NCBI GenBank assembly: GCA_002428905.1
Contig: DIYD01000106.1
Coordinates: 5,921 to 69,920, forward strand
DNA length: 64,000 bases
Origin: Bacteroidetes bacterium UBA6063
GTDB lineage: Bacteria; Bacteroidota; Bacteroidia; NS11-12g; UBA9320
Direction of reading: 5' to 3'
The notes under the pieces are model-generated. The model saw nothing but the letters and a program-made list of their open reading frames with translations. It was not told where the DNA came from and did not search any database. The position numbers and the translations under genes were made by a program. This document shows, one piece after another, positions 32,503-63,455 of this stretch. Numbering within the stretch: position 1 is the stretch's first letter; the number at the start of each line of letters is the position of its first letter.

Positions 32503-32507
32503 AGCTT

Positions 32508-33113: not shown

Positions 33114-33826
33114 ATATGAATAAAAGAATTATAGCCACATTAGGCCTTTTTTGCCTGATTTGTTCCAGTGTTTTTGCACAGGAAACCGTTACCGTTCGCG
33201 ATTTGGAAACCTGGAGTTCCATTGGATTAAGATACAAGTTCAACAAAAAATGGAGCATTGCAGTGCAAGAACAACTTCGGCTGAAAGACAACTCGTCTAC
33301 CATTGATCAGTACTTTACTCAGGGCACAATAAAATACAAACCGATCAAGCCCATTTGGTTTGGTTTATCTGCACGGTACATCCGCAACAACGATAACCAG
33401 GGCAAGATACAGGGTTACGAAAACCACATGCGTTTCCACGCCGATTTCGGATATAAGCACAACATCAGTCGCTTTAAATTGAAGTACCGCGTGCGCTATC
33501 AGCATAAAAATGAGCTTGGCATCAGTGCAGCAGATGGTGACGAAGCAAGAACGTTTGCCCGGTTTAAGGTAGACGGGAAATACAACATTAAGAAATGGAA
33601 GCTTGATCCCGGTTTAGCCGCAGAGATTTTCTACAACACAAGTAATTCTGTTGTAACCGACCAACTTCAAAGAATCCGGTTTACCCTGTATACAAATTAC
33701 GATGAATGGGATTTCGGTGACTTCAGAATGTTCTATCGGCTTGAACGTGATTTAAATACCACCTATCCCAAAACTACGCACATCGTTGGTCTAAATTATC
33801 AGTTAACCCTAAAGAAAAAGAAATGA
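33110..33826 (+). CDS. DUF2490-like exported beta-barrel-type protein
   Basis: Signal peptide MNMNKRIIATLGLFCLICSSVFAQ. Alternating hydrophobic pattern rich in R/K/Y/F. ATGA overlaps on both sides, with the upstream and the downstream gene. Confidence 0.4.
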   Translation: MNMNKRIIATLGLFCLICSSVFAQETVTVRDLETWSSIGLRYKFNKKWSIAVQEQLRLKDNSSTIDQYFTQGTIKYKPIKPIWFGLSARYIRNNDNQGKIQGYENHMRFHADFGYKHNISRFKLKYRVRYQHKNELGISAADGDEARTFARFKVDGKYNIKKWKLDPGLAAEIFYNTSNSVVTDQLQRIRFTLYTNYDEWDFGDFRMFYRLERDLNTTYPKTTHIVGLNYQLTLKKKK

Positions 33827-37347: not shown

Positions 37348-37409
37348 TTTATAACTTTAAGGTGTAAAAAAAAGAAATATTTTTGTGACGCACAAAGACA
37401 CGCTTGAAT

Positions 37410-47032: not shown

Positions 47033-48202
47033 TTATTCACAGGCAGCATAAACGGCATCTGCCACTTTCTGACAAATATCCATATCCAGACTGGAGGTGA
47101 TAATCTCATCACGATTAGGGCTCGCCGTATGGTCTGCAATTGCATAAGCTGCCGCCAATTTCATTTCCGGTGTAATGCGCTTGGCTCGTCCTTGCAACGC
47201 ACCTTTAAAAATACCGGGGAAAGCCAACACGTTATTCACCTGGTTTGGATAATCACTCCTTCCGGTGGCCACAATTGCAGCACCACCTCTATATGCCTCT
47301 TCAGGCATTATTTCAGGAATTGGGTTCGCCAACGCAAATACGATCGGATCGTTGGCCATGGTTTGAATGTCCTCGGCCGATAATAAATCGCCCTGACTCA
47401 CACCTATAAATACATCGGCATCAACAAGTGCCTCTTTAAGGTCACCGGCGATGTCATATCGATTTGAATATTGTAGTATTTCGCGTTTAGTAGGCGTCAG
47501 GTCTTCACGTTTGGTCGAAATAATTCCTTTGCTATCGCACACCAGAATATCTGCCACGGGGATACACTTATCGGGGCTTTGACTTACACAGCGCAACATA
47601 CGTGTTATTGCTACCCCTGCAGCACCAGCGCCATTTACGACTACCCGTACTTCTGACAAATCTTTGCCCACCACTTTACAGGCATTGATCAATCCGGCCA
47701 GTGTAACAATTGCAGTGCCATGCTGGTCGTCGTGGAAGACGGGTATGCCAATATCCTGCAGGCGCTCTTCCACTTCAAAACTTCTTGGTGCAGAGATATC
47801 TTCTAGGTTCACACCTCCGAATACCGGCGCAATCAATCGAACGGTTTTAATAATCTCTTCCACGTCCTGCGTATCTAAACAAATCGGAAACGCATTGATA
47901 TTGGCGAATTTTTTGAAAAGCATGGCCTTACCTTCCATTACCGGAATAGCAGCTTTGGCTCCAATATTTCCTAGCCCCAGTACAGCGCTGCCATCGGAGA
48001 TTACAGCCACAGTGTTGCCCTTCAGTGTTAGGTCGTATACCTGATCTGGATCGTTGTGAATGACCTTACACGGTTCTGCCACACCGGGGGAGTACACCCG
48101 CGATAGGTCATCGGATGTCTGTACTTCCGTTTTTGCAACTACTTCAATCTTTCCCTGAAGCTTTTTATGTAAATCAACCGATTCTTTGAAAAAATCTGCC
48201 AT
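47033..48202 (-). CDS. NAD(P)-dependent malic enzyme (short form without a PTA domain)
   Basis: VYSPGVAEPC, GLGNIGA, VVNGAGAAGVAI Rossmann motif. 389 aa. Confidence 0.88.
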   Translation of the reverse strand: MADFFKESVDLHKKLQGKIEVVAKTEVQTSDDLSRVYSPGVAEPCKVIHNDPDQVYDLTLKGNTVAVISDGSAVLGLGNIGAKAAIPVMEGKAMLFKKFANINAFPICLDTQDVEEIIKTVRLIAPVFGGVNLEDISAPRSFEVEERLQDIGIPVFHDDQHGTAIVTLAGLINACKVVGKDLSEVRVVVNGAGAAGVAITRMLRCVSQSPDKCIPVADILVCDSKGIISTKREDLTPTKREILQYSNRYDIAGDLKEALVDADVFIGVSQGDLLSAEDIQTMANDPIVFALANPIPEIMPEEAYRGGAAIVATGRSDYPNQVNNVLAFPGIFKGALQGRAKRITPEMKLAAAYAIADHTASPNRDEIITSSLDMDICQKVADAVYAACE

Positions 48203-48280
48203 AAGGAGGCCGTTTTGAATAAGCCGGCGAAAGTGGGCTTTTATTTGACATTATTCAACAAAATAGGCCATTAAATGGTT

Positions 48281-49096
48281 TTAGGCCTCAACGACAAGCT
48301 CTGGCTTAAGGTACCAATCGATTGCAGGCCGAAGAAACGACTCAACCAACTTGTCCTGTTCTTCGCGTATCAACCCTTCTAAAATTGATAGGGGTAATAC
48401 CGCACCTTTCCAAAACGTTCCGATTTCCCATTGGCCAAACGGCAATTCAGGTTTCAAGTCATAATTCAATTCATTGCGAGTGGGATACCCAGCCAAATAG
48501 AAATACGGACACTTTACCATTTGATCTTCCATAGCGAGGCCAAATCCAATTCCAATGTTTTCATTGGGTCGGGTATAGACACCTGTATCGAAATGGTGCG
48601 GCCAGATGCGTATTTCACTTGACGATTTGCAATAAAGCAACACTGCATTACACCAATCGTTTGCCAGTTTGCGGTATTGAATCCACTGCTGCAAGGCGTC
48701 ATGATCCGGCTTTACAATCCGTTCTTTAGAAAAGCTGTATTCCGGAATCTTGAAATGCAAGGCTCGATCGAAGTCTTTTGTTTCAAGTTTAAAGGCTTGT
48801 AATATGGGTATCATTTCCTGTTCCACTTCAACGATTATCTTTCCTACAGTTGGTGTTTTATGGAATACTTCTTGCGCATCGTTCAACCATTCCATATCAA
48901 ACGTTTGGAGATTAAGACTGCACATAATCTTGCCATCCGGCGTTTCGACCCAGCGCCCGGAGAGGCGTTTTCCCATGGCATCAAATTGCAAATTCGTGTG
49001 GCTATCGTCTTCTTGTTTGGGAACAAAGGTTCGATTCACCTTTGCAATCGGTTGGCTTAGCACATGTAGTTGTTGATCTATAGCTGTGTACTTCAT
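48281..49096 (-). CDS. Hypothetical cytoplasmic protein
   Basis: 271-aa ORF with coding-like composition, no signal peptide and no motif I can recognise. Confidence 0.4.
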   Translation of the reverse strand: MKYTAIDQQLHVLSQPIAKVNRTFVPKQEDDSHTNLQFDAMGKRLSGRWVETPDGKIMCSLNLQTFDMEWLNDAQEVFHKTPTVGKIIVEVEQEMIPILQAFKLETKDFDRALHFKIPEYSFSKERIVKPDHDALQQWIQYRKLANDWCNAVLLYCKSSSEIRIWPHHFDTGVYTRPNENIGIGFGLAMEDQMVKCPYFYLAGYPTRNELNYDLKPELPFGQWEIGTFWKGAVLPLSILEGLIREEQDKLVESFLRPAIDWYLKPELVVEA

Positions 49097-49347
49097 AGGT
49101 TATCTTAACGCAGTTAACGTTTACGTTACTACGACTTTTTGGTCGAAACCACAGTTTCTTGCCTGACAGGTAGAGGGAAAAAACTTAGTATCAGCACCTT
49201 ATCACTTTTGGTGGTTTACAATGCACACAAAACTCCAGATCGGGCAGTTTAAATTGCCTTAACTCAAACATTTAAATCCTATAACATTCTGAGCATCTAA
49301 CGATAACCTGACTTTTACTGCTTTGTGCTTTGAAATAACTATTAATA

Positions 49348-52300
49348 ATGAAACGTAAAGCACTTCTTTTGATTGCGTGTGTATTTGGGCTGTATTCGGC
49401 TCAGGCACAAATCAAGTTTGACCCTAAAATTGATGTCAATTTTGTTGCCGATACCGTAATGGTACCGGGAGAACCTCTTAAGTACCAGATCCTGTTCATT
49501 GGTGGATACGACATGGTACAATCTACTGCAACTTATGGTAATGCCGCAGGCAGTTCAGTATCTAAAAGCTGGAACGATTTTATCGGATTTACTCCGGATA
49601 CAACTGGACAAAGCCTGGGATGGGTATCGATTAACCACGAGCGCGTTGTAGCCAATGATAAATTGGGTGACGGTGGTGGAATGACCGTTTTCCGTGTAAA
49701 ACGCGACCCAAATAGCGATACATTGATTGTTATGGAGCAAACGCTTAAAGATGGTCGTAAAGGTGACTTCTTTAACGTTGACTTCGTGAATTATACAGGC
49801 GAAACAGGAATGAACTGTGGTGGTATCATCTCACTAGCAGATGGTCGTATCTGGACTGCGGAAGAGTGGATGCGTTACAGCAACCGCGACATCGCTGACC
49901 GTGATACAAGTGATTTCATCATCGGACAAGGAACCGTTAACGGACAAATTGCTACCTCTGGTTTCCCAGGTTTTAATGGGGAGAAAATCAAGAAATACCA
50001 AAACTATAACTATATGACGGAGATCGACCCACGTGAAGCTGTTGCAATACGCAAGCAGTACAACTGGGGTCGTCAGGCATTCGAAGGTGGTGTGATCATG
50101 GAAGATAACAAAACAGCTTACCTTGGCGTAGACAATACACCTGGTTTCTTTAGCAAGTTCGTTGCAGATGTTCCTGGTGACTTCACAAAAGGTACTACGT
50201 ATGTTTATCGTCACGATGATCAGCAACTACGCTTAAACCACTACTCTTCAAAATTAAATGCGTACGCAGAGATCTCAGCTTTCGACGATGTAAACAATAG
50301 AATTTACTCCACAAACTCAGAAAACGAAGGCGTTAATGTTTATTCCTTTATCGATGGTATGGTAGACAGCATCGGTTTCATTGATTTGAGCTCTTATGGT
50401 GAGGCTCCAACGTCTGTATCGGCGAACAACGGAATTTTAGCTGTTGCTATCCCAGGTACTTCTGTTGCCGCAAACGGTGTAGTTGTGTTCTACGACAAAG
50501 ACTACACAAAGCTTAAAGAAGTTACTGTAGGTGTTTTACCAGACATGGTTACGTTTACACCAGACGGCAAATATGTAATTACAGCGAATGAGGCTGAGCC
50601 TTCAGACGATTACAAAACAGACCCTGAAGGTTCTGTTTCAATCATCGACGTTTCAAACGGCGTAGCGAACGCTACAGTTTCCAACGCCACTTTTGATGGT
50701 GTTTCGATCCCTGCTGATGTTCGAATCTTTGGTCAGCATGAGAATACGGCAACTGATTTATTCTTCTCTGAGTATGCAGAAGGTAGTTCAAACAACAAAT
50801 ACCTTGAAATTTACAACGGAACAGGTGCTGAAATTGACCTTAGTACATACGCCTTCCCAAATGTTGGTAATGCTCCTACGGTTGTAGGTGAATATGAGTT
50901 CTGGAACACGTTCCCAGCTGGTGCAAAAGTTGCCAATGGTGAAACATACATTATTGCACATCAATCTGCTGATGCAAGCATCTTAGCGAAAGCAAACCAC
51001 ACATTCACATTTTTGAGCAATGGCGACGACGGATTCTGCCTGGTTAAAGGTGGTACCTGGAATGATGCCGATAATGACCAACGTATTGACGCGGGTGAGA
51101 TGACCGGTTTCACAAAACTTGATTGTATTGGCGACTGGAATGGCGATCCTGGAGCAGGATGGGATGTAGCAGGTGTTGCGGAAGCGACCAAAGATCATAC
51201 ACTTGTTCGTAAGGGTAGCGCAAACGGTAATTCTGACTGGACTGCTGCTGCTGGAACAACAACTGAAAACAGCGAGTGGATGGTGAAGAACAATGAAGAC
51301 TGGACAAACCTTGGCATGCATAACTTCAATGTGATGCACACACCTCAGCAAGATATGGAGCCAGAATACGTTGGTGTTAGCCCAGATTCAAAAACGGCTT
51401 ATGTTGCGTGTCAGGAAAACAATGCTATTGCGGTAGTAGACATCGCAACAGCTAAAATCACGAAAGTGATTGCCTTAGGTTTCAAAGACTACAGCCTTGC
51501 TAAAAACGCGATTGATGCAAGTGATAAAGACGACTCAATCGGAAACTTCAATGCGTATGCCAATGTATTTGGTATGTATCAGCCAGACGCAATCGACGTT
51601 GTTGAAATCGGTGGTAAGGTATACATCATTACTGCAAACGAAGGTGATGCTCGTGACTACGACGGTTTCTCTGAAGAAGTTCGTGTAGATGATCTAACAC
51701 TTGACCCAACTGCATTCCCGAACGCGGCTGAACTTCAAAAAGAAGAAAACTTAGGACGTCTTAAGACTACAACTACACTTGGTGATATTGACGGTGACGG
51801 TGATTACGATCAAATCTACTCGTATGGTGCACGTTCGTTCACGATTTGGGATACAGATGGTAACATCATCTTCGACAGCGAAAATGAATTTGGACGCATC
51901 CTTGCAGCACAATTCCCAGACAATTACGCTTCTAGCCGTGATGATGACAAAGCAAGTGAGCCTGAGTCTGTAACTACAGCTACAATCGATGGTAAGGTAT
52001 TTGCGTTCATCGGTCTTGAGCGCGCAACTGGTGTAATGGTATACGATATCACCGATCCTGCGAATGCTAAATTCGTTCAGTACTACAACAAAAACGAATA
52101 CGATTTGAGCCCAGAAGGCCTATTGGTAGTTGATGCAAATCAATCTACAAACGGTACGCCTTACTTAATCTCTACAAACGAAGCATTTGGCAGCTACGGC
52201 GGTTCGGTAAGTGCGTACGGCATTACTGGTTTCGACGGTAAGAAATGGGTTGAAATCAACAATACAGACATGAACAAAATGTTGAACTACCACCATGAGG

Positions 52301-53193
52301 CAGTTAATGTTGGTGCTACCATGTTCAACCGTTTGGAATGGGTAACATACGACAAGGAAACAAAAGCTGTTTATTTGACTGAAACAGGAAGAGACAACCC
52401 TGGTGGACGTTGGGCAGATGAAAACGCCAAAGGTGCAGTTCACGCTCCACATACACTAGCTCGTGCTCAGGAGCAAGGTACAACGCCAAACAGCTCAGAC
52501 TACTGGGATTACTACGGTCGTGTATTGAAGTACGATCCTGCTACAGAAGACGTAACTGTTCAAATTGAAGGTGGACCATATTCAGCAAGCTCTCCTTCGA
52601 TTTCTCAATACCCAGAAAACCACTTATCAAACCCAGACGGTTTATCAAACATCACTATTCACGGACGTCCATACCTGGTTATCTGTGAAGACCTGAACGG
52701 TACGTCTAACGGTCGTGTGCCAGCCGGTATCAGCAACCGTGCTTGTGAGTTATACCTATTGGACTTAACTATTGCTAAGCCAACAAACAAGGATCTAATC
52801 CGCATCAGTGTTGGACCAGTAGGTGCAGAAATCACTGGCGCATGCCCTACACCTGATGGCAAGACGCTATTGGTTAACTCTCAGCACCCAAGTTCTACAA
52901 ACCCTTTCCCGTATAACTACTCATTGACTTATGCCTTAACGGGTTGGGATTTGGAGAAACTGGTTTCGGCACACGAACTTCAGAAGAAAAACGAAGCCTT
53001 TACCGTTTACCCTAACCCAACCAAAGGCATTATCAGCCTTGACAAGGTTCAGGACGTAGCGATCTATGGAAACGATGGTCGTTTGATCAACGTTTACGAG
53101 CAAGTAATGCAAGTTGATTTATCAAACGAAGCTAAAGGTGTTTACTACATCCGTAATGCGGAAGGAGCCACCAAGAAAGTTATTCTGAACTAA
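49348..53193 (+). CDS. Large secreted multidomain protein: PhoX-like (DUF839) phosphatase segments + lamin-tail domain + phytase-like/choice-of-anchor-I beta-propeller + T9SS type-A CTD
   Basis: Signal peptide. A lamin-tail-domain-like segment (FFSEYAEGSSNNKYLEIYNGTGAEIDLSTYAF...FLSNGDDGFCLVK, about nt 50758-51030). Propeller-like repeats (MVTFTPDGKYVITANEAEP..., YVGVSPDSKTAYVACQENNAIAVVDIATAKI, GDIDGDGDYDQIYSYGARSFTIWDTDGN). A PhoX-family C-terminal signature NPDGLSNITIHGRPYLVICEDLNG. The C-terminus (FTVYPNPTKGIISLDKVQDVAIYGNDGRLINVYE...GVYYIRNAEGATKKVILN) fits the T9SS CTD. Confidence 0.6.
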   Translation: MKRKALLLIACVFGLYSAQAQIKFDPKIDVNFVADTVMVPGEPLKYQILFIGGYDMVQSTATYGNAAGSSVSKSWNDFIGFTPDTTGQSLGWVSINHERVVANDKLGDGGGMTVFRVKRDPNSDTLIVMEQTLKDGRKGDFFNVDFVNYTGETGMNCGGIISLADGRIWTAEEWMRYSNRDIADRDTSDFIIGQGTVNGQIATSGFPGFNGEKIKKYQNYNYMTEIDPREAVAIRKQYNWGRQAFEGGVIMEDNKTAYLGVDNTPGFFSKFVADVPGDFTKGTTYVYRHDDQQLRLNHYSSKLNAYAEISAFDDVNNRIYSTNSENEGVNVYSFIDGMVDSIGFIDLSSYGEAPTSVSANNGILAVAIPGTSVAANGVVVFYDKDYTKLKEVTVGVLPDMVTFTPDGKYVITANEAEPSDDYKTDPEGSVSIIDVSNGVANATVSNATFDGVSIPADVRIFGQHENTATDLFFSEYAEGSSNNKYLEIYNGTGAEIDLSTYAFPNVGNAPTVVGEYEFWNTFPAGAKVANGETYIIAHQSADASILAKANHTFTFLSNGDDGFCLVKGGTWNDADNDQRIDAGEMTGFTKLDCIGDWNGDPGAGWDVAGVAEATKDHTLVRKGSANGNSDWTAAAGTTTENSEWMVKNNEDWTNLGMHNFNVMHTPQQDMEPEYVGVSPDSKTAYVACQENNAIAVVDIATAKITKVIALGFKDYSLAKNAIDASDKDDSIGNFNAYANVFGMYQPDAIDVVEIGGKVYIITANEGDARDYDGFSEEVRVDDLTLDPTAFPNAAELQKEENLGRLKTTTTLGDIDGDGDYDQIYSYGARSFTIWDTDGNIIFDSENEFGRILAAQFPDNYASSRDDDKASEPESVTTATIDGKVFAFIGLERATGVMVYDITDPANAKFVQYYNKNEYDLSPEGLLVVDANQSTNGTPYLISTNEAFGSYGGSVSAYGITGFDGKKWVEINNTDMNKMLNYHHEAVNVGATMFNRLEWVTYDKETKAVYLTETGRDNPGGRWADENAKGAVHAPHTLARAQEQGTTPNSSDYWDYYGRVLKYDPATEDVTVQIEGGPYSASSPSISQYPENHLSNPDGLSNITIHGRPYLVICEDLNGTSNGRVPAGISNRACELYLLDLTIAKPTNKDLIRISVGPVGAEITGACPTPDGKTLLVNSQHPSSTNPFPYNYSLTYALTGWDLEKLVSAHELQKKNEAFTVYPNPTKGIISLDKVQDVAIYGNDGRLINVYEQVMQVDLSNEAKGVYYIRNAEGATKKVILN

Positions 53194-53223
53194 TCGCATC
53201 TTGTTTACGTATAAGTTTTTTCA

Positions 53224-53255
53224 GCCAGGGCAGTATGCCCTGGCTTTTCCTTTTT
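53224..53255 (+). terminator. Rho-independent terminator after the 1281-aa T9SS cargo gene
   Basis: GCCAGGGC agtat GCCCTGGC hairpin followed by TTTTCCTTTTT. Confidence 0.75.
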
Positions 53256-53266
53256 AATTCATCAAC

Positions 53267-55063
53267 ATGAAACGCAGGTTTTCTATCCTATTCTTTGCCG
53301 CAGTCATTGCATGTATGGTTGCATTTACACCTAAATTAACCACCAATACTGATTTCAACACGAAGTATTACGGTCAGATTGATCAACTGATCAATCAACT
53401 AAACCAGTTGCAAAACGATATTCCGAATTTCGAAACTAACTATACCGAATGTCGTAAAGCGTTTAAGCGTCTGGAGTTTCTTTTGGCCCATTTAGATCGA
53501 TCGTTTTATGCCAAGCATATTAATGGCGCACCGTTGCCTAAACTTGAAAAAAATGTACCGGATATTCGCATTATCGAACCCCATGGTTTTCAGGTTATAG
53601 ATGAATTAAGTGGCGCAACATCTACCGAAGAAATTAAATTACTCAAATCGGAAATCAGCCGATTGAGCACCAAGCTTAACCAATGGAAAACCATGCATTC
53701 GAGCATGAATCATACGAACGAGATTCTATTACAAGCCGTTCAATATCAACTGATAAGAATTTACACCCTGGGGCTTACCGGGTTTGATACACCAGGGAGT
53801 TTACAAGGTGTTTCCGATGCCTACTACAGTATACAAGGGCTACATGACTACCTGGCATTGTCCGACCTAAAATCAACCAAATCGGTTCAATCCCTTTTTG
53901 AGAAAAACATCATTTATCTTGGTAGACATACAGACTTCGAGGCCTTTGATCGGGCTGAATACTACAAGCTGTATTGGCAGCCGTTATACCGTGAAGTTCT
54001 TAAATTATACGAACTAAATCAGGTTCGAAACTGGAACCAATCCCATGTTAAACCTGTTGAAGTAAATGCCACGGCTGAACATCTTTTTAGCGACGACTGG
54101 TTCAACCGACAAGCCTTTTTGGACTTTAATGAGCAAGACCTGCGGCCAAAAACCGTCGCCCTGGGCAAGGCCTTATTTTTTGACCCAAAATTATCGGCGA
54201 ATGGAAAAATGGCGTGTGCTACCTGTCACCAACCTTCTAAAGGTTTCAGTGATGGGCTGGCTAAGAGTACTACGATTTCTGGCGAAGGTACTGTCTTGCG
54301 TAATTCACCCGGGCTGGTAAACAGTTTGTACGCCAAAGGTTTCTTCTACGATTTGCGTGCTGAACATCTCTCTCAACAATTTGAGCATGTCATATTCAGT
54401 GAGGATGAATTCAATACGTCGTTTGTTGGTATACTCGACCAGCTAAAGGAGACGAAATACCGCCAGCTGTTTACAGACGCATTTCCGGGTCATGCCAGAA
54501 ATCCGGTTAACCCATATACTTTCAAGGTGGCATTGTCCTCTTACATCGCATCCTTAAGCGACTTTAACTCCGAATTTGATCGGTACATGCGTAATGAAGA
54601 CATCGCCATTGACTCGTCGGTTATCGCCGGATATAATCTGTTTACAGGCAAAGCCGCATGTGCAACATGTCACTTCCTACCGACATTTTCGGGTTTAGTA
54701 CCTCCGTTTTACGATGATTCCGAAACGGAAGTATTGGGTGTTCCGGCTACCAGGGATTACAAGGTCATTGACCAGGATCCAGGTCGATATACAAAACAAA
54801 AACCCAAAGAACTTGTCGGTTTTTACCAGAATTCATTCAAAACCACTACAGTTCGTAATGCTTCTCAAACCGCTCCCTATATGCACAACGGTGTATTTAC
54901 AGAGCTCGAAGAAGTGCTGGAGTTCTACAACAATGGTGGGGGCCTTGGTCATGGACTGCATGTACCCAACCAAACATTAGCTGGTGATAGCCTAAACCTA
55001 AATGATCTGGAACTGACTCAACTCCAACAGTTTATGGAAGCATTAGAACATAGTCTGAACTAG
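53267..55063 (+). CDS. Di-haem cytochrome c peroxidase (CCP/MauG family) with a ~270-aa N-terminal extension
   Basis: Two CxxCH haem-binding sites (GKMACATCHQPSKGFSDG and GKAACATCHFLPTFSG) and the conserved C-terminal region APYMHNGVF. Confidence 0.8.
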   Translation: MKRRFSILFFAAVIACMVAFTPKLTTNTDFNTKYYGQIDQLINQLNQLQNDIPNFETNYTECRKAFKRLEFLLAHLDRSFYAKHINGAPLPKLEKNVPDIRIIEPHGFQVIDELSGATSTEEIKLLKSEISRLSTKLNQWKTMHSSMNHTNEILLQAVQYQLIRIYTLGLTGFDTPGSLQGVSDAYYSIQGLHDYLALSDLKSTKSVQSLFEKNIIYLGRHTDFEAFDRAEYYKLYWQPLYREVLKLYELNQVRNWNQSHVKPVEVNATAEHLFSDDWFNRQAFLDFNEQDLRPKTVALGKALFFDPKLSANGKMACATCHQPSKGFSDGLAKSTTISGEGTVLRNSPGLVNSLYAKGFFYDLRAEHLSQQFEHVIFSEDEFNTSFVGILDQLKETKYRQLFTDAFPGHARNPVNPYTFKVALSSYIASLSDFNSEFDRYMRNEDIAIDSSVIAGYNLFTGKAACATCHFLPTFSGLVPPFYDDSETEVLGVPATRDYKVIDQDPGRYTKQKPKELVGFYQNSFKTTTVRNASQTAPYMHNGVFTELEEVLEFYNNGGGLGHGLHVPNQTLAGDSLNLNDLELTQLQQFMEALEHSLN

Positions 55064-55232
55064 GTGTTTTAACATTTAATTAACCAAAGCTTAGCAATTT
55101 TATAGACTTGCCTTGAGGAATTCGTAATCCTTCCGTTATCTCGACATAAACTGGTGGTCTGACCTTTGTTGTTATGTTGATGCGATTATTCATACGGTTC
55201 TTATTTCAGAGCTATTACCACCTTATTCGAAA

Positions 55233-56075
55233 ATGAAGCGACGTAAGGTAGAACTTGTGGTACTCTCCGATATTCATCTGGGCACCTACGGAAGCCGGGC
55301 GAAGGAAGTATTGCAATACTTAAAGAGTATCAAACCTAAAACGTTGATTCTCAACGGTGACATCATTGATGTATGGCAGTTTAAGAAGAAATACTGGCCA
55401 AGCTCGCATACCAAGGTATTGAAAGAAGTACTTAATCTGGCATCCAAAGGAAGTCAGATTCACTTCTTACCCGGTAATCACGACGAAGTGTTCAGAAGAT
55501 TTGTGGGATATAAACTGGGCAACATTAGCATTGAAAACAAGGTAATTCTGAATCTTGATGGTAAAAAAGCATGGTTCTTCCACGGCGATGTCTTCGATGT
55601 AACCATGCAACACTCCCGTTGGTTAACAAAGCTCGGATCTGTTAGTTATGACCTCCTTATCTGGATGAACTATCGCGTTAATCAGTTCTTGGAATTTTTA
55701 GGTAAAGAGCGAATTTCCTTTTCAAAGAAGGTAAAAAATGGAGTGAAGAGCGCGGTGAAATACATCAACCAGTTTGAGGAAATCTGTGCCGACATTGCAA
55801 TACACAAGGAATACGACTACGTTGTTTGCGGTCACATTCATCAGCCGGAAATTCGCGAAATAGAAACGCGCAAGGGCAACGTTTTGTACTTGAACAGTGG
55901 CGATTGGATTGAGAATCTCTCTGCACTGGAATACGATAAAAAGCAATGGACGATTTATTATCATGATGAATCGACCGATGCTCAGCCGCAAGAAGAAGAT
56001 TCTGCCGACATGGATCACAAAATGCTGTTCCAACAAATGTTGAAGGAGTTTCAAATTGAAACAATCGATCGATGA
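55233..56075 (+). CDS. LpxH-like metallophosphoesterase (UDP-2,3-diacylglucosamine diphosphatase family)
   Basis: VVLSDIHLG, LILNGDIIDVW, LPGNHDE, FFHGDVFD and VCGHIHQPE are collinear with the LpxH metal-binding motifs. Confidence 0.7.
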   Translation: MKRRKVELVVLSDIHLGTYGSRAKEVLQYLKSIKPKTLILNGDIIDVWQFKKKYWPSSHTKVLKEVLNLASKGSQIHFLPGNHDEVFRRFVGYKLGNISIENKVILNLDGKKAWFFHGDVFDVTMQHSRWLTKLGSVSYDLLIWMNYRVNQFLEFLGKERISFSKKVKNGVKSAVKYINQFEEICADIAIHKEYDYVVCGHIHQPEIREIETRKGNVLYLNSGDWIENLSALEYDKKQWTIYYHDESTDAQPQEEDSADMDHKMLFQQMLKEFQIETIDR

Positions 56076-57079
56076 AAATCCTATATGGCATACAGTGCAC
56101 TGGAAATGGCCATATAACACGGTCGATTGACCTCGTAAACGAGTTAAAAAAATACGCTCAGGTAGATGTATTAACAAGCGGGACACATTCTGAAGTATCC
56201 CTCCCCTTTGGCATAAAATACCCGCTTAAAGGTCTCGCGTACTACTTCGGTCGAAACGGTAGTTTCGACGTGGTTCGAACCCTATTCAGCAACAACTTCT
56301 TTCGGTTTATGAAAGAAGTAAACGACTTGCCCATTGAAGAGTACAATCTCGTTATTTCAGATTTTGAACCAATCAGTTCCTGGTCGGCACGAAAAAAAAA
56401 GGTGTACAGCGTAGCGTTGAGCAATCAGGCTTCGCTGGTTCATCCCAAGGTACCCAAACCCAAAACGGTCAACCCAATTTCTAAATGGATCATTAAATCG
56501 TTCTGTCCGTCCAATGCCAAATACGGCCTTTTCTACTCTAAGTTCGACAGTTCGTTGTTTTACCCACCAATTCGAAAAGAAGTCAAGGATTTAACGCCGA
56601 CTTCAGGCGATTACTACGTGGTATACCTCCCCTTTTATGGTGACGATCGTATTGTGGAAATACTTGGCACCTTTTCAAACACCACCTGGAAGGTGTTTTC
56701 TAAGCATGCAACGACGCGTAAGATATATGGCAATGTGGATGTTCGCCCTATATCGGACAAAACCTTCCTAAAAGCCATCGAACATTGCAAAGGTGTACTT
56801 TGCAGTGCCGGATTCGGTACTACTTCCGAAGCCCTCTATCTCAAGAAAAAACTTCTGGTTATACCCATGAAAAGTCAGTACGAACAATTGTGCAATGCGC
56901 ACGCATTGGAACAATTTGGTGTACCATCTATTCGCTCATTAAATCACTCTAATCTAGAACGTATTGGTGACTGGTTAGCAGAGGACACAATTCCGGAAGT
57001 TCATTTTCGAGATGAAAAACGATCAATTGTACAGAAGATACTAACGGACTATATATCACACGTTGAAACCACTGCATAG
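56072..57079 (+). CDS. GT-B glycosyltransferase (MGT/GT28-like; MJ1255/TIGR00661-type)
   Basis: N-terminus MKILYGIQCTGNGHITRSIDLV and C-terminal donor-binding region (SAGFGTTSEALYLKKKLLVIPMKSQYEQLCNA). ATGA overlap with the upstream gene. Confidence 0.6.
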   Translation: MKILYGIQCTGNGHITRSIDLVNELKKYAQVDVLTSGTHSEVSLPFGIKYPLKGLAYYFGRNGSFDVVRTLFSNNFFRFMKEVNDLPIEEYNLVISDFEPISSWSARKKKVYSVALSNQASLVHPKVPKPKTVNPISKWIIKSFCPSNAKYGLFYSKFDSSLFYPPIRKEVKDLTPTSGDYYVVYLPFYGDDRIVEILGTFSNTTWKVFSKHATTRKIYGNVDVRPISDKTFLKAIEHCKGVLCSAGFGTTSEALYLKKKLLVIPMKSQYEQLCNAHALEQFGVPSIRSLNHSNLERIGDWLAEDTIPEVHFRDEKRSIVQKILTDYISHVETTA

Positions 57080-58445
57080 AGACCAGCTTCGTTACACAAA
57101 CAACTACTTACTCAACTTTCATCCACCGAAGGATTTTGAGTGGGGTGTTGGTATATCGGCCTACCAAACAGAAGGACTTCAAGAGAATGATGGCAGGGGG
57201 CCCAGTATCTGGGATGTGTTTCCCCCTTCGAAAATCAAAGGTGGTTTTGGTGCCGGCAGGAGTTGCAACTTCTACGAGAACTATGTGAACGATATTGCCT
57301 TAGCCCGATGGCTGGGTATGCGCAATTTTAAAACATCCATTAGCTGGTCTAGAATTCTACCCGAAGGCAAAGGGCAAGTTAACCCGAAAGGTGTAGGATT
57401 CTACGACCGTTTAATCGATGAGTTATTGAGTAAGAAAATCAACCCATGGATGGTGGCATATCACTGGGATCTTCCACAAGCATTGCAGGAAAAAGGAGGT
57501 TGGGTCAACCGTGACACGGTATACCACTTTTTGGATTATTTGGCTGTATTAGAGAAGCACTTTGGCGACCGTGTTAACAACTGGATTGTCTTCAATGAAC
57601 CTTTTGTTTTTGTAGGTGCGGGTTATTTTCTTGGCATACACGCTCCTGGTGAAATAGGCCTGCGAAATTTCTTACCGGCAACGCACCATGTAAACTTAGC
57701 CAACGCGTTAGGAATCAACTACCTGCAAAACAATACGCAAGCAAAAGTGGGAAGTTCATTTTCCTTCGCGAGTGTCCACCCATTAAGCAAAACCACAACG
57801 CATATCAACGCACAAAAGCGCTTTCACAACCTTGTGAATCACCTGTTTCTTGATCCGGTGATTGGTAAGGGTTATCCGTTGGAACATCTACCCTTTTTGC
57901 GGAAGATCGATCGGTTTATGCAGGCTGAGGACCTGAACAGGATGCATAGCACACCCGACTTTCTGGGTGTCCAGGTGTATACGCGTGAAGTGATTCGAAA
58001 CAGCTGGTTTATGCCCTATTTGCGTGCCAAAGTGGTCACAGCTGAACAACGCGGCGCCTATGTTACCAGTCTCGGGCAGGAAGTATACCCAATGGCTTTG
58101 TTGGAGATCCTTAACTGGTTAATACCACATACATCGGATAAGAAAATACCCATATACGTTACCGAATGTGGCATCAGTCAACCTGAGAAATTGATTAAAC
58201 ATCCGGTTAAAGATCACTACCGGGTACTGTATTACACTCAGGTACTTAACTCCATTCGTAAACACGTGGCTTCAGGTGACGTAAAAGGACTTTTCTTTTG
58301 GAGTTTAATGGACAATTTCGAGTGGGCAGAGGGTTTCAACTCTCCTTTTGGGTTGTTTCACGTAGACTTTGACACCCTGGAAAGAAACCCGAAGAAATCG
58401 GCACATTGGGTGCGTCAATTAATGAAAGAAGTGGCTGGAGCGTAA
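57063..58445 (+). CDS. Glycoside hydrolase family 1 beta-glucosidase; non-ATG (TTG) start
   Basis: FEWGVGISAYQTEG, the acid/base motif VFNEPFV and the nucleophile motif YVTECGIS. No in-frame ATG precedes the conserved N-terminal motif. The TTG at 57063 overlaps the upstream gene by 17 nt. Confidence 0.75.
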   Translation: MKPLHRDQLRYTNNYLLNFHPPKDFEWGVGISAYQTEGLQENDGRGPSIWDVFPPSKIKGGFGAGRSCNFYENYVNDIALARWLGMRNFKTSISWSRILPEGKGQVNPKGVGFYDRLIDELLSKKINPWMVAYHWDLPQALQEKGGWVNRDTVYHFLDYLAVLEKHFGDRVNNWIVFNEPFVFVGAGYFLGIHAPGEIGLRNFLPATHHVNLANALGINYLQNNTQAKVGSSFSFASVHPLSKTTTHINAQKRFHNLVNHLFLDPVIGKGYPLEHLPFLRKIDRFMQAEDLNRMHSTPDFLGVQVYTREVIRNSWFMPYLRAKVVTAEQRGAYVTSLGQEVYPMALLEILNWLIPHTSDKKIPIYVTECGISQPEKLIKHPVKDHYRVLYYTQVLNSIRKHVASGDVKGLFFWSLMDNFEWAEGFNSPFGLFHVDFDTLERNPKKSAHWVRQLMKEVAGA

Positions 58446-58619: not shown

Positions 58620-61600
58620 ATGTTACGGAAGCTGCTCACTGGTTACGTTCTACTATTGACCGCATTATGCGCTCGATCTCAGTGTCCCACTGTATCCATA
58701 ACATCCGAAAAAACCGCATACTGTATATCCGACTTTGTTGAACTAAAAGCCAGTAACGTTCCACTTTCAGCCACTGTAGAATGGGATTTGGGATTGGGGT
58801 GGGATACCACCGAAGCCCATCACTGGGGATCTGCAGCAACACCTGGAATGTTAACCGCCAACCTTAGGCTTACCCTTGCAACGGGCGAATCTTGTGTGTA
58901 TAGTGAAGCCGATGTTGCCCAAATTCACGATCTGCCTGTAGCGGACTTCACCACATCCGAACAACTATTTTGTACGTTGAGGGAGGAAGTCATCCTGGTC
59001 GATCAAACACCAACTTCGGTTCGCAGAAACTGGGTGATTAATCAAGAGACGCTAGAAAACACCCCAAAAATCACTTCCCAACCTATTGCCAAAGCTGGGA
59101 GTTACGATATTACGTTGGTCGCCGAAGACCAAAACGGTTGTCGGGGTTCTAAAACCGTAAAAAATGCCATTCGCGCCTATCCCGGTATCCCGCTGGACTT
59201 CGTCAAATCTAATAACTCCAATTGTTATCCGATTACAACCGACTATACGTCAATCATTAATCCGGGCATTCAAACCGTCACTGATTATGAATGGAACCTT
59301 CCCGGCTCTAATTCTACAATAGTCAACACGGAGCACGTTACTCGTGTACAATACAATAGTGTTGGTGTGTACGACACCCGGTTGAAGGTATCAACCCGCG
59401 AAGGTTGTGTATATACCTATGAAAAGCGAAGCTATATTACGCTTGGTGATACTGCAACGTTAGGCGTAACCACCAATAAGTCAGGCGCCTGCCTGAGTGA
59501 AAAAATCTACCTCACGCAAACCACAGCGGGTTTGCCGGGTACATTCACCTGGGGAATAGCCGCCGCTACATTTGACCACCCAACTAAGAATCAGGCAACG
59601 ATAACCTTTAAAGATACCGGTACATACACCTTAAATCTAACGTACGACCACAATAACTGTATTTCTTCTCTTGTGAAATCCGACCTGATTAAAATTCAGG
59701 GACTCAAATCCGATTTTATCAGTGACAATGCCTGGCATTGCGATACACCACATACAGTAGAATTAATCAATATCTCGGATACCTCAAGTGGGAAAATTTC
59801 CGGGTTTCAATGGCGAGTCATTAATGCCCTGGACAATACGATCGTAGCAACTTCCACTTCGAAAGACTTCGACATCACGATAAAAGAAAGTCCGGCAATA
59901 TACGATGTCGAACTTATCACGACGGCCGCATCCGGTTGCAGCGACACAACGGTTAAGTCGGAATTCATACAGGTAGAATCGTATCAATTCGACTTCTTTG
60001 CAAAACCCAATATTGGGTGTGTTGGTCAGGACTTTACCTTTATTAACCAAACCCCTTCGGGCTCGTATTACGGACTTGATCTTTTTTCCTGGGACTTTTA
60101 CAACAAGGACAAATCGTCTGTACTTGGTTCTTCAGGAAGCACCTCACCTAAATTCGTGTATAGCGACACCGGATATTACCACGTTCAGTTAACCGCCGCT
60201 AACCCATTAGGGTGTCAGGAAAAATATATGCTGGATAGCGCAGTGCAGGTGGTTTCACCATCAATCGACTACAACTGGGAAGACAGCATTACATGTTCCA
60301 ACGAGTTTTTTGATCTAATTGGGCGCAGTACACCTGTAAACCCACAGTTTATCAATGCATATACGTTTAGGCATAAACTGACTGGCCAGACCACTTCATT
60401 CTCTGGAGATACCGTGCCTGGTATTTTATCTGATATAGGCGAATATGAAGTGGTTTATCACTATACAATTTCCGGTGGGTGTGACGATTCGTTGGTGAAC
60501 AGTTTTTGGGTAAACGGATTAAAAGGGCGTATTGCCTTAGACACGCAAACAGGTTGTTCTCCACTACAAGTTCGACCGCGTTTTGTGGTTGACTACAATG
60601 TACATAAGGGTTTTAGCGATACCAGTTTAAACTATTACTGGACGGTTTTGCCCCGAACGGGTGTTACCATTAAGGGGGGAACCACGGCTACCCCGATCAT
60701 AACGCTAAATGAAGACCTGGAATACCGCATTGCCTTGTACGTCAATAATAGTTCAGGGTGCGTAAACTACCTCGTTTCTGATACGATTGCCACTGGAGTA
60801 AAGGCCCAGCTAATGGTAAGTCAATTGGAGGCATGTGTTGGTGATACCATCCACTTAACCAATACATCAACCAACACGCCATCTTCGGTCATTTGGAATA
60901 TTCAAAGTACCAGTTCGTATACGATCGATCGTATCGATTCTAACCGAAGAGATCTGGTATTGCAGGATAGTGGATCTTATAATGTATCTCTAATCGCAAC
61001 GAAAAACGGTTTGTGTAGTGATACGGTTAGTTATGATATTTCTACCACCGAGTTGTCTGCAAAATTTACTGTCAGTGATTCCATCTTGAGTTGTGCTCCG
61101 GCAGATGTTTGGTTCATAAACCAGTCGAGAAATGCAGATGTTCTGGAGTGGTTTTTTGGAGATGATCAGACTACACGTGTCGGTGGTCAGGACTCGACCC
61201 ATCACCAATACCTGGTGAACAGCGATTCCAGTGGTTTTGATATTATGCTTATCGCCAAAAGTAACTTTGGATGTGCGGATACATTTATTCGAAACGACCT
61301 GGTTAAGTTAAAAGGGCCAATAGCCGCATTTGATGTACAAAACACAAAAGGCTGCGAGCCGCTTGAGGTTTCAATTACGAATCAAAGCAAACACTATGAT
61401 ACTTCGTACTTTTCTTACGGTATCGGCTTAGAAATCGACACAAACACGGTATCGGATTATACCTATTCTAATACCGCTTCATCCAGTGTGGTATATTATC
61501 AACCCTCCATGACCGTAATTGATAAGGGTGGGTGCTCAGCCACCTATACACTGGAAGACAGTATTGCTGTATTTAAACTCCCTGAAATCAAGCTTCACAT

Positions 61601-63455
61601 TCTGCCAGACACCATTGTGTGCCATCGTGAGAATTTGGTCGTTACCGATACCGGTGAGTTCGGCTATCGTTGGAACTGGTTCCTGAACAACCAGATGGTA
61701 TCCACAAGTTTGTTAGACACAATTACCGCGACGATCGAAGGTGAAAACATACTGCGTCTTGTTGTAACCAATCCGCATTGTTCGGATACCGCTGAGCAAT
61801 CGATTTGGGCCAGCGAGTCTGCCAAAATCAACTTTAAACTGCCTGATTTTCTTTGTGAAAAAGTGCCGTTTACGGTTGGTTTAAGTTTGGATAATAAAAC
61901 AGCCCCGTCCGCTTATCGTTGGGACTTTGGTGAACCCGGTAACCCAAATAATATTCAGATAACCGCCGATTCGTCTGCTTCGATTAGCTATCTCAGCCCC
62001 GGCCCTAAAACGATTAAAGTCACTGCCGAGCTCCCGAATGGCTGTGCTATTCCCGATACCATCCGTATTGAGGTGTTCGACTCAAAAAACGTCCCGGTAA
62101 TCGAACCGGATTATGCCGGATATGATTCCAACAATCGGGTTATAATTCAATACCCCGATTTCGACTTTGACTACTTCGACTTTTTCAATATCCAACGAGA
62201 TGGTAGCCTCTTAAAGAAAGCGTCTCAAACCCCTAATTCTCAACTCACCGATTCAAGTCTGACTACCCGTACTCGCGCATGTTATAGTTTATCTGTGTCA
62301 GACAAATGTGGTGTGGAAGGCCCGAAAAGCAGGGTTCATTGTCCGGTACTGTTAGATGTTAATAGTCCTCAAGCGGAACAAGTAGAGCTCAACTGGACCT
62401 ATTATGTTGGATGGGATCGCGTTGAGCACTATGAGATTTATAGACGTGAAAAAGACAGCGCGTTTAAAAAAATTGGTCAGGTCTTTAATACCCAAAGAAC
62501 CTATATTGATAGCGCCGGCCTTTGCAACCGGGAATACGCCTATAAAATAGCTGCTGTAAAGGAGGGCGACACATTGGTTTCATACAGCAATACGGAGCTC
62601 ATTGAACCCGAGTACATCCTGAACTTCACTGAACCAAATATTGATAATGTAAGCGTGTTACTAAATCAGGATATTGAAGTTCGGTGGTCAGGCAGCCCTG
62701 TTCTGCAATCACCTCACTATCTTCTAACCAAATATGAAAGTACCATGGATAACGTGCTTGGTGAAATTGAAGTAAAGGATACCCACTACGTTGATAACGA
62801 TGTTCAATCCGATCTCTATTCTTATATGTATACGGTAAAGGAGATCGATCGGTGTTTGAACATAGGTACTGCGGGTCAATATGGTAAAACAATATTATTA
62901 AAAGCGCGATTTGATGAACAAAACCCCGTTTTAAACTGGTCGGCCTATGAACAATGGAGATCGCCAGTGATTAGTCATAACATTGAATTTGTTCGCCCCG
63001 GAGGCAGTATTCAGGTAGATCAGGTTTCTCCTGCGACTTATAGCTACACCGACGCTTCGTTTTATGAGGATGTAGATGGTTTTTACCCCTATCGCGTTTA
63101 TGCAGTAAATGAACAGGGAGACACCAGTTACTCCAACATTTCACGTGTGAGTGGTAAACCCGTTTTCTTAGCACCGAATAGCTTCTCGCCGAACAACGAC
63201 GGTATTAACGATGTCCTCAATTTTTATACCCTGTTTGTCGTTAACGACTTCAATAAGCCCGTCTCCGATTTTGATATTATGGTATACAACCGTTGGGGAA
63301 ACCGTGTCTTTTTAGGGCATGATTTGAAACAAGGTTGGGATGGAAAGCAGGATGGTAAACTCTTACCAAAAGGCGTTTATCTCTTCCGTATTGGTTACAC
63401 CGATGGCGATGGTCGCAGATATTGGATCACTGGAACCGTTCATTTGATGCGATAG
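58620..63455 (+). CDS. Giant (1611-aa) cell-surface protein with ten or more PKD-like domains, FN3-like modules and a T9SS type-B (gliding-motility-associated) C-terminal domain
   Basis: Signal peptide. Recurrent ~90-aa modules carrying W-x-(W/F) motifs (WDLGLGWDTT, YEWNLPGSNST, FQWRVINALDN, FSWDFYNKDKSS, YRWDFGEPGNP ...). C-terminus PNSFSPNNDGINDVLNFY...IMVYNRWGNRVF...GWDGKQDG...GVYLFRIGYTDGDGRRYW fits CHU_C. Confidence 0.8.
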   Translation: MLRKLLTGYVLLLTALCARSQCPTVSITSEKTAYCISDFVELKASNVPLSATVEWDLGLGWDTTEAHHWGSAATPGMLTANLRLTLATGESCVYSEADVAQIHDLPVADFTTSEQLFCTLREEVILVDQTPTSVRRNWVINQETLENTPKITSQPIAKAGSYDITLVAEDQNGCRGSKTVKNAIRAYPGIPLDFVKSNNSNCYPITTDYTSIINPGIQTVTDYEWNLPGSNSTIVNTEHVTRVQYNSVGVYDTRLKVSTREGCVYTYEKRSYITLGDTATLGVTTNKSGACLSEKIYLTQTTAGLPGTFTWGIAAATFDHPTKNQATITFKDTGTYTLNLTYDHNNCISSLVKSDLIKIQGLKSDFISDNAWHCDTPHTVELINISDTSSGKISGFQWRVINALDNTIVATSTSKDFDITIKESPAIYDVELITTAASGCSDTTVKSEFIQVESYQFDFFAKPNIGCVGQDFTFINQTPSGSYYGLDLFSWDFYNKDKSSVLGSSGSTSPKFVYSDTGYYHVQLTAANPLGCQEKYMLDSAVQVVSPSIDYNWEDSITCSNEFFDLIGRSTPVNPQFINAYTFRHKLTGQTTSFSGDTVPGILSDIGEYEVVYHYTISGGCDDSLVNSFWVNGLKGRIALDTQTGCSPLQVRPRFVVDYNVHKGFSDTSLNYYWTVLPRTGVTIKGGTTATPIITLNEDLEYRIALYVNNSSGCVNYLVSDTIATGVKAQLMVSQLEACVGDTIHLTNTSTNTPSSVIWNIQSTSSYTIDRIDSNRRDLVLQDSGSYNVSLIATKNGLCSDTVSYDISTTELSAKFTVSDSILSCAPADVWFINQSRNADVLEWFFGDDQTTRVGGQDSTHHQYLVNSDSSGFDIMLIAKSNFGCADTFIRNDLVKLKGPIAAFDVQNTKGCEPLEVSITNQSKHYDTSYFSYGIGLEIDTNTVSDYTYSNTASSSVVYYQPSMTVIDKGGCSATYTLEDSIAVFKLPEIKLHILPDTIVCHRENLVVTDTGEFGYRWNWFLNNQMVSTSLLDTITATIEGENILRLVVTNPHCSDTAEQSIWASESAKINFKLPDFLCEKVPFTVGLSLDNKTAPSAYRWDFGEPGNPNNIQITADSSASISYLSPGPKTIKVTAELPNGCAIPDTIRIEVFDSKNVPVIEPDYAGYDSNNRVIIQYPDFDFDYFDFFNIQRDGSLLKKASQTPNSQLTDSSLTTRTRACYSLSVSDKCGVEGPKSRVHCPVLLDVNSPQAEQVELNWTYYVGWDRVEHYEIYRREKDSAFKKIGQVFNTQRTYIDSAGLCNREYAYKIAAVKEGDTLVSYSNTELIEPEYILNFTEPNIDNVSVLLNQDIEVRWSGSPVLQSPHYLLTKYESTMDNVLGEIEVKDTHYVDNDVQSDLYSYMYTVKEIDRCLNIGTAGQYGKTILLKARFDEQNPVLNWSAYEQWRSPVISHNIEFVRPGGSIQVDQVSPATYSYTDASFYEDVDGFYPYRVYAVNEQGDTSYSNISRVSGKPVFLAPNSFSPNNDGINDVLNFYTLFVVNDFNKPVSDFDIMVYNRWGNRVFLGHDLKQGWDGKQDGKLLPKGVYLFRIGYTDGDGRRYWITGTVHLMR

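Follow-up and report, generated by a model that had tools for sequence, protein, structure and literature searches.

Nested domain architecture of a predicted type IX-secreted PhoX-like phosphatase and its MauG-like neighbour in Bacteroidetes bacterium UBA6063

Classical PhoX is a substrate of the Tat (twin-arginine translocation) route and so can fold before export (PMC12594817), and R385 and D292 are active-site residues of this enzyme (PMC11098088). In Flavobacterium johnsoniae, a PhoX_like protein (Fjoh_2478) and a MauG_like protein (Fjoh_2477) are encoded at one locus and belong to the genes most induced by phosphate (Pi) depletion, with listed fold-changes of 12.5 and 9.6, respectively (PMC8115612). 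Deletion of phoX^Fj lowered the inducible phosphomonoesterase activity, PhoX^Fj was inactive in Pseudomonas putida, and the authors, who note that phoX goes together with a MauG-like gene in every Flavobacterium genome, proposed that the enzyme needs a MauG-made cofactor (PMC8812569). Another family, PhoAaty or “atypical alkaline phosphatase”, has four conserved motifs (Lin et al. 2015 Supplementary Fig. 2), a set found in Synechococcus PCC 7942, Aphanothece, dinoflagellates, haptophytes, green algae and MSP130-bearing animals (PMC4548154). When produced recombinantly, a PhoAaty of dinoflagellate origin works as a phosphatase, which Ca2+, Mg2+ or Mn2+ stimulates and Zn2+ does not (PMC6723241). 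Sea-urchin MSP130 belongs to the choice-of-anchor I family and is described as having seven propeller blades and predicted Ca sites (PMC11878542). Here we describe a gene pair in a 64,000-nucleotide (nt) stretch of Bacteroidetes bacterium UBA6063, an uncultured member of the Bacteroidia (contig DIYD01000106.1, positions 5,921 to 69,920 of the forward strand; hereafter, the window, whose own numbering is used throughout), in which a PhoX-family protein that carries a PhoAaty-type propeller inside it is encoded directly upstream of a MauG-like protein.

Judged from domain profiles and alignments, the product of the gene at 49348-53193 is almost certainly a PhoX propeller hosting a choice-of-anchor I propeller that itself hosts a lamin-tail domain (LTD), an arrangement that is nested and not serial. 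All named domains score above curated Pfam and NCBIfam cut-offs, as the first-pass annotation of the window had anticipated when it proposed a 1281-amino acid (aa) protein with PhoX, LTD, propeller and type IX secretion system (T9SS) parts; its idea of a domain fusion with an unusual insertion is right about the insertion, and the linear fusion gives way to nesting. The layout is signal / PhoX-N / (choice-of-anchor I-N / (LTD) / choice-of-anchor I-C) / PhoX-C / T9SS tail, with the following parts.

49348..53193, + strand: phosphatase gene, a single ATG-to-stop frame of 1281 aa
49348..49407, + strand: Sec-type signal peptide, MKRKALLLIACVFGLYSAQA and then Q at the cleavage site, without a twin-arginine motif
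49408..50217, + strand: PhoX N-terminal half, aa 21-290, contiguous with aa 964 onward in uninterrupted homologues
50218..50742, + strand: insert part 1, aa 291-465, choice_anch_I profile positions 8-156 of 489, pLDDT >90
50743..51348, + strand: lamin-tail module, aa ~466-667, boundaries by MAFFT against relatives P0030/P0032
51349..52236, + strand: insert part 2, aa 668-963, choice_anch_I profile positions 174-476
52237..52962, + strand: PhoX C-terminal half, aa 964-1205, Pfam PhoX profile positions 252-514
52999..53193, + strand: T9SS type A sorting domain and stop, aa 1218-1281 (PF18962, TIGR04183)

Relatives that lack the insert define the point at which the PhoX scaffold is interrupted. 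In a BLAST segment map, query aa 1-290 and 964/967-1201 are directly contiguous in proteins such as P0078 and P0083, and MAFFT alignment places the 673-aa insert (aa 291-963) where uninterrupted relatives have a 3-residue loop, for example SAN; the junction reads ...YVYKQN-SAN-GKWVEIDN... in P0121 and ...YVYRHD-(aa 291-963)-GKKWVEINN... in the query. In the 1090-aa relative P0032, precomputed PhoX matches flank the insert on both sides. When the two PhoX parts from eight family members were joined into a spliced profile and searched against the PDB, the profile aligned with PhoX of Pseudomonas fluorescens (3zwu/4amf) in one continuous alignment over the splice point (profile 194-489, chain 240-550, E=1.2e-10). 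Uninterrupted proteins of 605-611 aa that consist of PhoX and a T9SS tail are up to 72% identical to the spliced query over 98-100% of its length, and several of these homologues bear the NCBI name “alkaline phosphatase PhoX”. By these alignments the scaffold is a single propeller homologous to the solved PhoX, and the earlier question of whether its N- and C-terminal segments make up one propeller is answered in the affirmative at the level of sequence, by the contiguous relatives and the spliced-profile alignment.

The same protein recurs well beyond this assembly. It was found, identical and with the same neighbours, on contigs from three independent public sources (ENA, JGI and Logan), and a search of 5.8 billion proteins returned more than 70 clusters (90% identity) with the insert-bearing architecture, of which ~25 have the 1281-aa layout and ~45, of ~1088 aa, are without the LTD; further relatives contain the same modules in other arrangements. 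Orthologues 55-94% identical to the protein fill more than 25 clusters. AlphaFold2 (AF2) models, read here for their confidence scores, gave a pLDDT of 85.5 and a pTM of 0.76 for aa 21-1214 and a pLDDT of 88.3 for the insert alone. A full-text literature search for choice-of-anchor I and for PhoX with a lamin tail found no description of the nested architecture. The core PhoX-like/MauG-like system is already known, and the nested layout is a new architectural variant of it.

Some of the catalytic positions of PhoX can be followed across the splice. The Pfam PhoX profile (PF05787 / COG3211) matched aa 896-1181 at 83.4 bits (gathering score, 24), and a phmmer comparison of the C-terminal half with P. 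fluorescens PhoX (3zwu/4amf) aligned aa 975-1185 with chain residues 360-552 (E=1.5e-8). NPDGL (aa 1095-1099) and ICEDLNG (aa 1112-1118), singled out at first pass as a PhoX signature, are both present and align to SPDGL and TDGD of the solved enzyme. With R385 and D292 as a check, residue numbers in the 3zwu chain turned out to be those of the PhoX literature; R385 then maps to R995 (FNRLEW), D292 to D262 (GVDNTPG), E273 to E246, VEIDP to TE225ID227P, PDGL to D1097 and QHP to 1179-1181. All of these (R995, D262, E246, E225/D227, D1097 and QHP 1179-1181) are invariant among 63 insert-bearing family members. The invariant motifs of the same 63 sequences are GWxSxNHE, GDGGGMT, GETGMNC157GG, RIWTAEEW, TE225ID227P, FE246GG and GVD262NTPG in the N-terminal half, and the C-terminal half has FNR995LEW, TETGRD, NPD1097GL, ICEDLNG, GAE1161ITG and Q1179-H-P. 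From this likeness, the PhoX head is predicted to be an Fe3+/Ca2+ phosphomonoesterase.

On profile evidence it is nearly certain that the insert itself is a whole propeller of the choice-of-anchor I type and belongs to the PhoAaty/MSP130 family. Pfam choice_anch_I (PF22494) matched in two pieces, aa ~299-448 and 656-942 (E=5e-100, 336 bits against 32), and NCBIfam choice_anch_I (NF038117) scored 489 bits, its cut-off being 300. The insert has the full set of four PhoAaty motifs in the right order, each nearly identical to a published example:

aa 398-417, motif 1: query PDMVTFTPDGKYVITANEAE, published example PDMVTFTPDGSKVLVANEGE
aa 671-680, motif 2: query EPEYVGVSPD, published example EPEYIAISPD
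aa 685-695, motif 3: query YVACQENNAIA, published example YVSLQENN...
aa 759-767, motif 4: query YIITANEGD, published example YVITANEGD

The core residues of these motifs are invariant in the 63 insert-bearing sequences, and insert part 2 also contains DIDGDGDYD at aa 813-821. Because the four motifs are present and a dinoflagellate member of the family is an active enzyme, the insert belongs to a second, independent phosphatase family. The initial description of this region as a choice-of-anchor I or phytase-like propeller is thus half right: the NF038117 score bears out choice-of-anchor I, and the PhoAaty/MSP130 motifs fit better than a phytase-like assignment. Homology between the insert and PhoX, a candidate raised by some BLAST and Pfam alignments that extended past the last choice-of-anchor I blade into PhoX, was rejected when hhalign of the family profiles returned a probability of 1.8%.

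The LTD module takes the place of eight residues, NGTTDVSA, of the 1088-aa form. Pfam LTD (PF00932) matched aa 467-562, between the two choice_anch_I pieces, with 38.1 bits against 34.3, and the isolated segment scored 42.9 bits (E=7e-11); the module also matched the NCBIfam ExeM N-terminal region over aa 468-571 (E=7.7e-9, score 34). Copies that are 57-65% identical occur in unrelated surface proteins of Flavobacteriia (loci L069-L080), in such contexts as two LTDs with a C-terminal domain (CTD), DUF5689 with an LTD, and a plastocyanin-like domain with three LTDs. The similarity of these copies indicates that the module was recently shuffled among surface proteins, and the closest copies, in such heterogeneous proteins, point to no single role. 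P0096 and P0101 show that a choice-of-anchor I unit can hold an LTD in a protein that lacks PhoX.

The export signals agree with secretion by a route other than Tat. The pattern RR-x-hydrophobic-hydrophobic occurred in 0 of 186 family N-termini, and Sec-type signals in all 186; Tat export, which is typical of classical PhoX and does not define it, is not found here. At the C terminus, Por_Secre_tail (PF18962) matched aa 1220-1279 with 32.1 against 27, and TIGR04183 scored 23.1 against 23. The terminal T9SS sorting domain named in the first-pass annotation is therefore borne out by two profiles above cut-off as well as by the Sec signal, and the domains likewise support its view of the protein as a phosphate-scavenging enzyme that is secreted or held at the surface and bears an unusual insertion. 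Two other large open reading frames (ORFs) in the window, 18078-21953 (1291 aa) and 58620-63455 (1611 aa, with PKD repeats), end in CHU_C type B T9SS domains; because type A (in the phosphatase) and type B tails are both present, the organism uses both T9SS tail types.

Directly downstream lies a gene for a di-haem protein.

53267..55063, + strand: MauG-type partner, 598 aa, Pfam CCP_MauG, di-haem, CxxCH at aa 317 and 465, Tyr554

At first pass this gene had been taken for a cytochrome c peroxidase among several phosphate-related neighbours; in place of a loose neighbour we find a MauG-type partner. To place it in context, we used 68 PhoX-family loci (L001-L068) that a scan over 185,579 species genomes had yielded, most of them with uninterrupted PhoX and four (L001-L004) with the 1281-aa form, and searched for the partner with tblastn. 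In 60 of these 68 loci it stood immediately downstream of the PhoX-family gene, with matches of more than 500 aa at 37-58% identity, and the 1090-aa form of Fluviicola (Fluviicola sp. CP170456.1) also has the partner downstream. Tyr294 of MauG is the axial ligand that defines MauG-type haem chemistry, standing in for the Met of peroxidases, and Y554 of the partner aligns with it without gaps (EFY554NN, LFY294NK). Among the 61 aligned orthologues none departs from Tyr554 or the second CxxCH, and 60 keep the opening Cys of the first CxxCH, where the remaining one has G. Overall the protein is most similar to bacterial di-haem peroxidases, and its C-terminal segment is closest to MauG. Scores of 161 bits against the MauG equivalog (TIGR03791; cut-off 444) and 159 against MbnH (cut-off 363) make it, by its sequence, MauG-like and not MauG. 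The N-terminal ~290 aa (53267-54140) had no Pfam, NCBIfam or PDB sequence match; this region holds residues that are invariant over the 61 orthologues, for example R63, K67, E70 and G172-F-D174.

Two non-coding elements flank the phosphatase gene.

49260..49307, + strand: three TAAC boxes, at 49260, 49282 and 49304, with exact 22-bp spacing, ending ~40 nt before the ATG
53223..53255, + strand: hairpin and T-run with a GC-rich 10-bp stem, between the phosphatase gene and the partner

A TTTG element follows the TAAC triple at about -26, and a rough base-composition estimate puts the chance occurrence of such a triple at ~0.014 per 64-kb window. Gibbs sampling of 65 upstream regions yielded a positioned motif with an information content of 11.2, compared with 7.1-7.7 in shuffles. 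In 56 dereplicated orthologous upstream regions, TAAC was enriched 2.4-fold, on the sense strand only, and TAAC-TAAC distances peaked at 22 bp (19 pairs, 0.24 expected), 33 bp (6) and 44 bp (15, ~0.2 expected). Across the window, TAAC-N18-TAAC was not enriched (4 occurrences, 3.0 expected), and only the chained triple upstream of the phosphatase gene stands out. Scanning for sigma-70 promoters gave no useful signal, which is usual in Bacteroidota. Activators of the PhoB/OmpR type use direct repeats that are in phase and overlap the -33 region, and we infer that the TAAC repeats are candidate Pho-box-like sites of such an activator, a likeness judged by their phasing.

The hairpin folds with -20.9 kcal/mol in RNAfold (z=-4.7), and Rfam found no known RNA in 48000-56500. 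By visual reading, most of 62 related spacers (median 77 nt) contain a comparable GC-rich hairpin and T-run of differing sequence. The element looks like an intrinsic terminator or attenuator, and its conservation suggests partial termination or mRNA stabilisation. Its position between the two genes suggests that partial termination sets a high ratio of enzyme to partner.

We lean towards the view that the locus encodes a two-headed phosphatase that is induced by Pi starvation and secreted through the T9SS, with a PhoX centre that the MauG-type partner matures in the periplasm. A role in phosphate scavenging, for which homology, synteny and the published physiology of a relative all speak, is probable in its own right. 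On phosphate starvation, a PhoB-type activator would bind the phased TAAC repeats and switch transcription on, and the hairpin after the phosphatase gene would let part of the transcripts pass into the partner gene. PhoX would leave the cytoplasm unfolded by way of Sec, not folded by way of Tat, and because Sec exports it unfolded, oxidative maturation by the partner would fall in the periplasm, before T9SS export, either as loading of Fe3+ or the oxo cluster or as a protein-derived modification; whether the partner oxidatively matures the PhoX centre is, in our judgement, evenly poised. The Sec-exported and T9SS-secreted enzyme would then be released or attached to the cell surface, where the PhoX head would hydrolyse phosphomonoesters at its Fe3+/Ca2+ centre. 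The PhoAaty head could add another hydrolytic centre, dependent on Ca2+, Mg2+ or Mn2+ and not on Fe or Zn, and so would widen the substrate range or keep the enzyme useful under iron scarcity; going by its characterised relatives, we put even chances on the insert being catalytically competent. Tentatively, the LTD might hold polymeric or surface-bound substrate, which is the least supported step and one that we rate as rather unlikely.

Several observations weigh against a two-headed, MauG-matured phosphatase. Of the ten metal- and phosphate-binding residues of P. fluorescens PhoX, the mapping reached a part. The first ~200 scaffold residues did not align to solved PhoX, either as a single sequence or with two profiles, and a Pfam search with aa 1-300 alone gave no PhoX match. 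By the family motif, the invariant C157 (GETGMNCGG) may be the equivalent of the PhoX Fe ligand Cys179. The F. johnsoniae physiology is carried over to this locus through a shared Pfam family, a MauG-like neighbour and a common phylum, so it applies by analogy, and the hairpin may be a sign of separate transcription of the two genes. Foldseek with the insert returned generic YVTN-type propellers and no specific solved relative. The animal MSP130 members are seen as Ca-binding biomineralisation proteins and not as enzymes (PMC11878542), a view under which the insert could be non-catalytic.

These last points lead to a rival account in which the PhoX scaffold alone is catalytic and the choice-of-anchor I propeller with its LTD is a Ca-dependent binding or anchoring module, which would concentrate substrate or position the enzyme at mineral surfaces, polyanionic organic phosphorus, extracellular DNA or the cell envelope. 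We consider it a real but less probable reading. Besides the generic Foldseek matches, it draws on the description of animal MSP130 as Ca-binding surface proteins with predicted Ca sites, for which enzymology was not shown (PMC11878542), on the shuffling of the LTD among many non-enzymatic surface proteins, and on the lack of any insert-PhoX relation in hhalign. It sits poorly with the retention in 63 sequences of four PhoAaty motifs that are rich in invariant Asp/Glu, and with cyanobacterial and algal family members that count as phosphatases by classification or by experiment (PMC4548154, PMC6723241).

We regard as improbable an account in which the protein is not primarily a phosphatase and the partner installs a quinone-like or cross-linked redox cofactor that would let it oxidise, for example, reduced phosphorus or organic compounds. 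The MauG-type neighbour in 60 of 68 loci, with its Tyr ligand, would suit such chemistry, as would the fact that the characterised proteins MauG and MbnH make protein-derived cofactors. PhoX^Fj had no phosphatase activity in a heterologous host (PMC8812569) and P. fluorescens PhoX weakly oxidises phosphite (PMC12704751), which point the same way; however, deletion of phoX^Fj lowers inducible phosphomonoesterase activity (PMC8812569), the mapped PhoX residues are invariant, and it is Pi starvation that acts as the inducer in F. johnsoniae (PMC8115612). A chimeric ORF produced by misassembly or by read-through of separate genes is practically excluded, because three independent assemblies and more than 70 clusters agree, the ~25 clusters of the 1281-aa form among them; in addition, the insert is in frame within a single domain and the AF2 model is confident throughout. 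On balance, then, the Pi-starvation-induced phosphatase with two predicted heads and a MauG-type maturation partner is the account that we prefer.

Choice-of-anchor I and PhoX co-occur in three independent ways: nested, in tandem in one chain, and as adjacent genes. At locus L085 (5001-12237, P0081), a choice-of-anchor I/PhoX-like fusion, a second PhoX-CTD gene and a CCP_MauG gene stand in a row, and at L086 (5001-9861, P0078) a protein of two PhoX-like units has a small cytochrome c and DUF5777 after it, in the place of the MauG-like gene. Repeated BLAST segments reveal three or four tandem PhoX-like units per chain in P0016 (2204 aa), P0037 (1647 aa) and P0067 (1632 aa). In a weakly resolved neighbour-joining tree of 182 PhoX scaffold sequences, proteins with the insert group into three clades or more, nested among uninterrupted ones; the insert occupies one and the same 3-residue loop throughout, LTD-bearing forms appear in more than one clade, and the internal branches are too short for a count of insert gains and losses. 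We would put forward only as a doubtful generalisation that Bacteroidota have a Tat-independent route to active PhoX by way of MauG-type maturation, with the PhoAaty propeller repeatedly gained or lost at one loop and the two-centre enzyme hedging against iron limitation.

Downstream of the pair, 55233-56075 and 56072-57079 encode a Metallophos_2/Metallophos protein and a glycosyltransferase (PF13528, weak PF04101) in genes that overlap by 4 nt, followed at 57063-58445 by a GH1 glycosidase. The two Pfam families are those of the PlcP/glycosyltransferase lipid-remodelling genes of the F. johnsoniae Pho regulon, and from these families the two genes look like the PlcP/Agt pair of phosphate-starvation lipid remodelling. 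The metallophosphoesterase, which the first-pass annotation had counted among exported functions, looks instead like a cytoplasmic protein of the PlcP lipid-remodelling type. This pair adjoins the PhoX/MauG-like pair in L001, L002, L039-43 and L058 and lies elsewhere in L004 and L012; in the window, the region upstream of the PlcP-like gene is without the TAAC spacing. Farther away, at 31753-35190, lies an operon of VTC domain, DUF4956, DUF2490 and CotH kinase-like genes (Pfam), 14 kb off and with no link shown. The window also encodes a 1027-aa protein with a TMEM260-like protein O-mannosyltransferase domain (37404-40487) and, beside it on the opposite strand, a 2OG-Fe(II) oxygenase (36505-37347).

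PhoX and PhoAaty belong to the main enzyme families thought to free phosphate from organic matter in water and soil, and their differing metal needs (Fe and Ca for one, Ca, Mg or Mn for the other) feed arguments about iron-phosphorus co-limitation. One family nested in the other offers a clean system for asking whether both centres work in one chain, and ties bacterial PhoAaty/MSP130 domains to a phosphate-starvation context. The MauG-type partner makes testable the question raised in 2022 of why Flavobacterium PhoX is inactive in other hosts. Automatic names for the nested family vary (DUF839, choice-of-anchor I, YncE, PhoX), and surveys of gene counts by single Pfam matches can mis-score nested proteins. 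With one domain set into another twice over, the protein also lends itself to the study of how propellers tolerate whole-domain inserts.

Set beside the described systems, the protein is closest in its scaffold to the uninterrupted T9SS PhoX proteins of Bacteroidota (for example in Aureispira anguillae, Pontibacter sp. G13 and Paracrocinitomix mangrovi), with which it shares up to 72% identity over the spliced PhoX, a Sec signal, a type A tail, a MauG-type gene directly downstream and a hairpin in the spacer; they have a 3-residue loop where it has 673 residues of choice-of-anchor I and LTD. With PhoX of P. fluorescens (3ZWU, 4ALF, 4AMF) it has in common the Pfam family, ~300 alignable residues and the conserved VEIDP, E273, D292, R385, PDGL and QHP positions, whereas overall identity is low and the N-terminal ~200 residues are unalignable by sequence; classical PhoX, moreover, is exported by Tat and has no haem partner, insert or T9SS tail. 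PhoX^Fj and Fjoh_2477 (Lidbury et al. 2021, 2022) likewise represent a Bacteroidota PhoX far removed from the classical enzyme and accompanied by a di-haem gene of the MauG-like kind, but PhoX^Fj is described as an outer-membrane lipoprotein without an insert, in contrast to the T9SS tail and two nested domains seen here. The insert resembles the PhoAaty/MSP130 family (Synechococcus PCC 7942 PhoA, Amphidinium carterae ACAAP, sea-urchin MSP130) in scoring above the NF038117 cut-off and in its four ordered motifs; those proteins are free-standing with an anchor of their own, and here the propeller lies inside another enzyme and is interrupted by an LTD. That module resembles the N-terminal region of ExeM-type extracellular nucleases with an LTD, although the nuclease domain is absent and the score of 34 compares with a cut-off of 1300. 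Finally, the partner is like MauG of Paracoccus denitrificans and MbnH in its two c-type haem motifs, its Tyr294 equivalent and its position beside a gene for a possible protein substrate, and differs from them in falling far below the equivalog cut-offs and in its extra N-terminal domain of ~290 aa.

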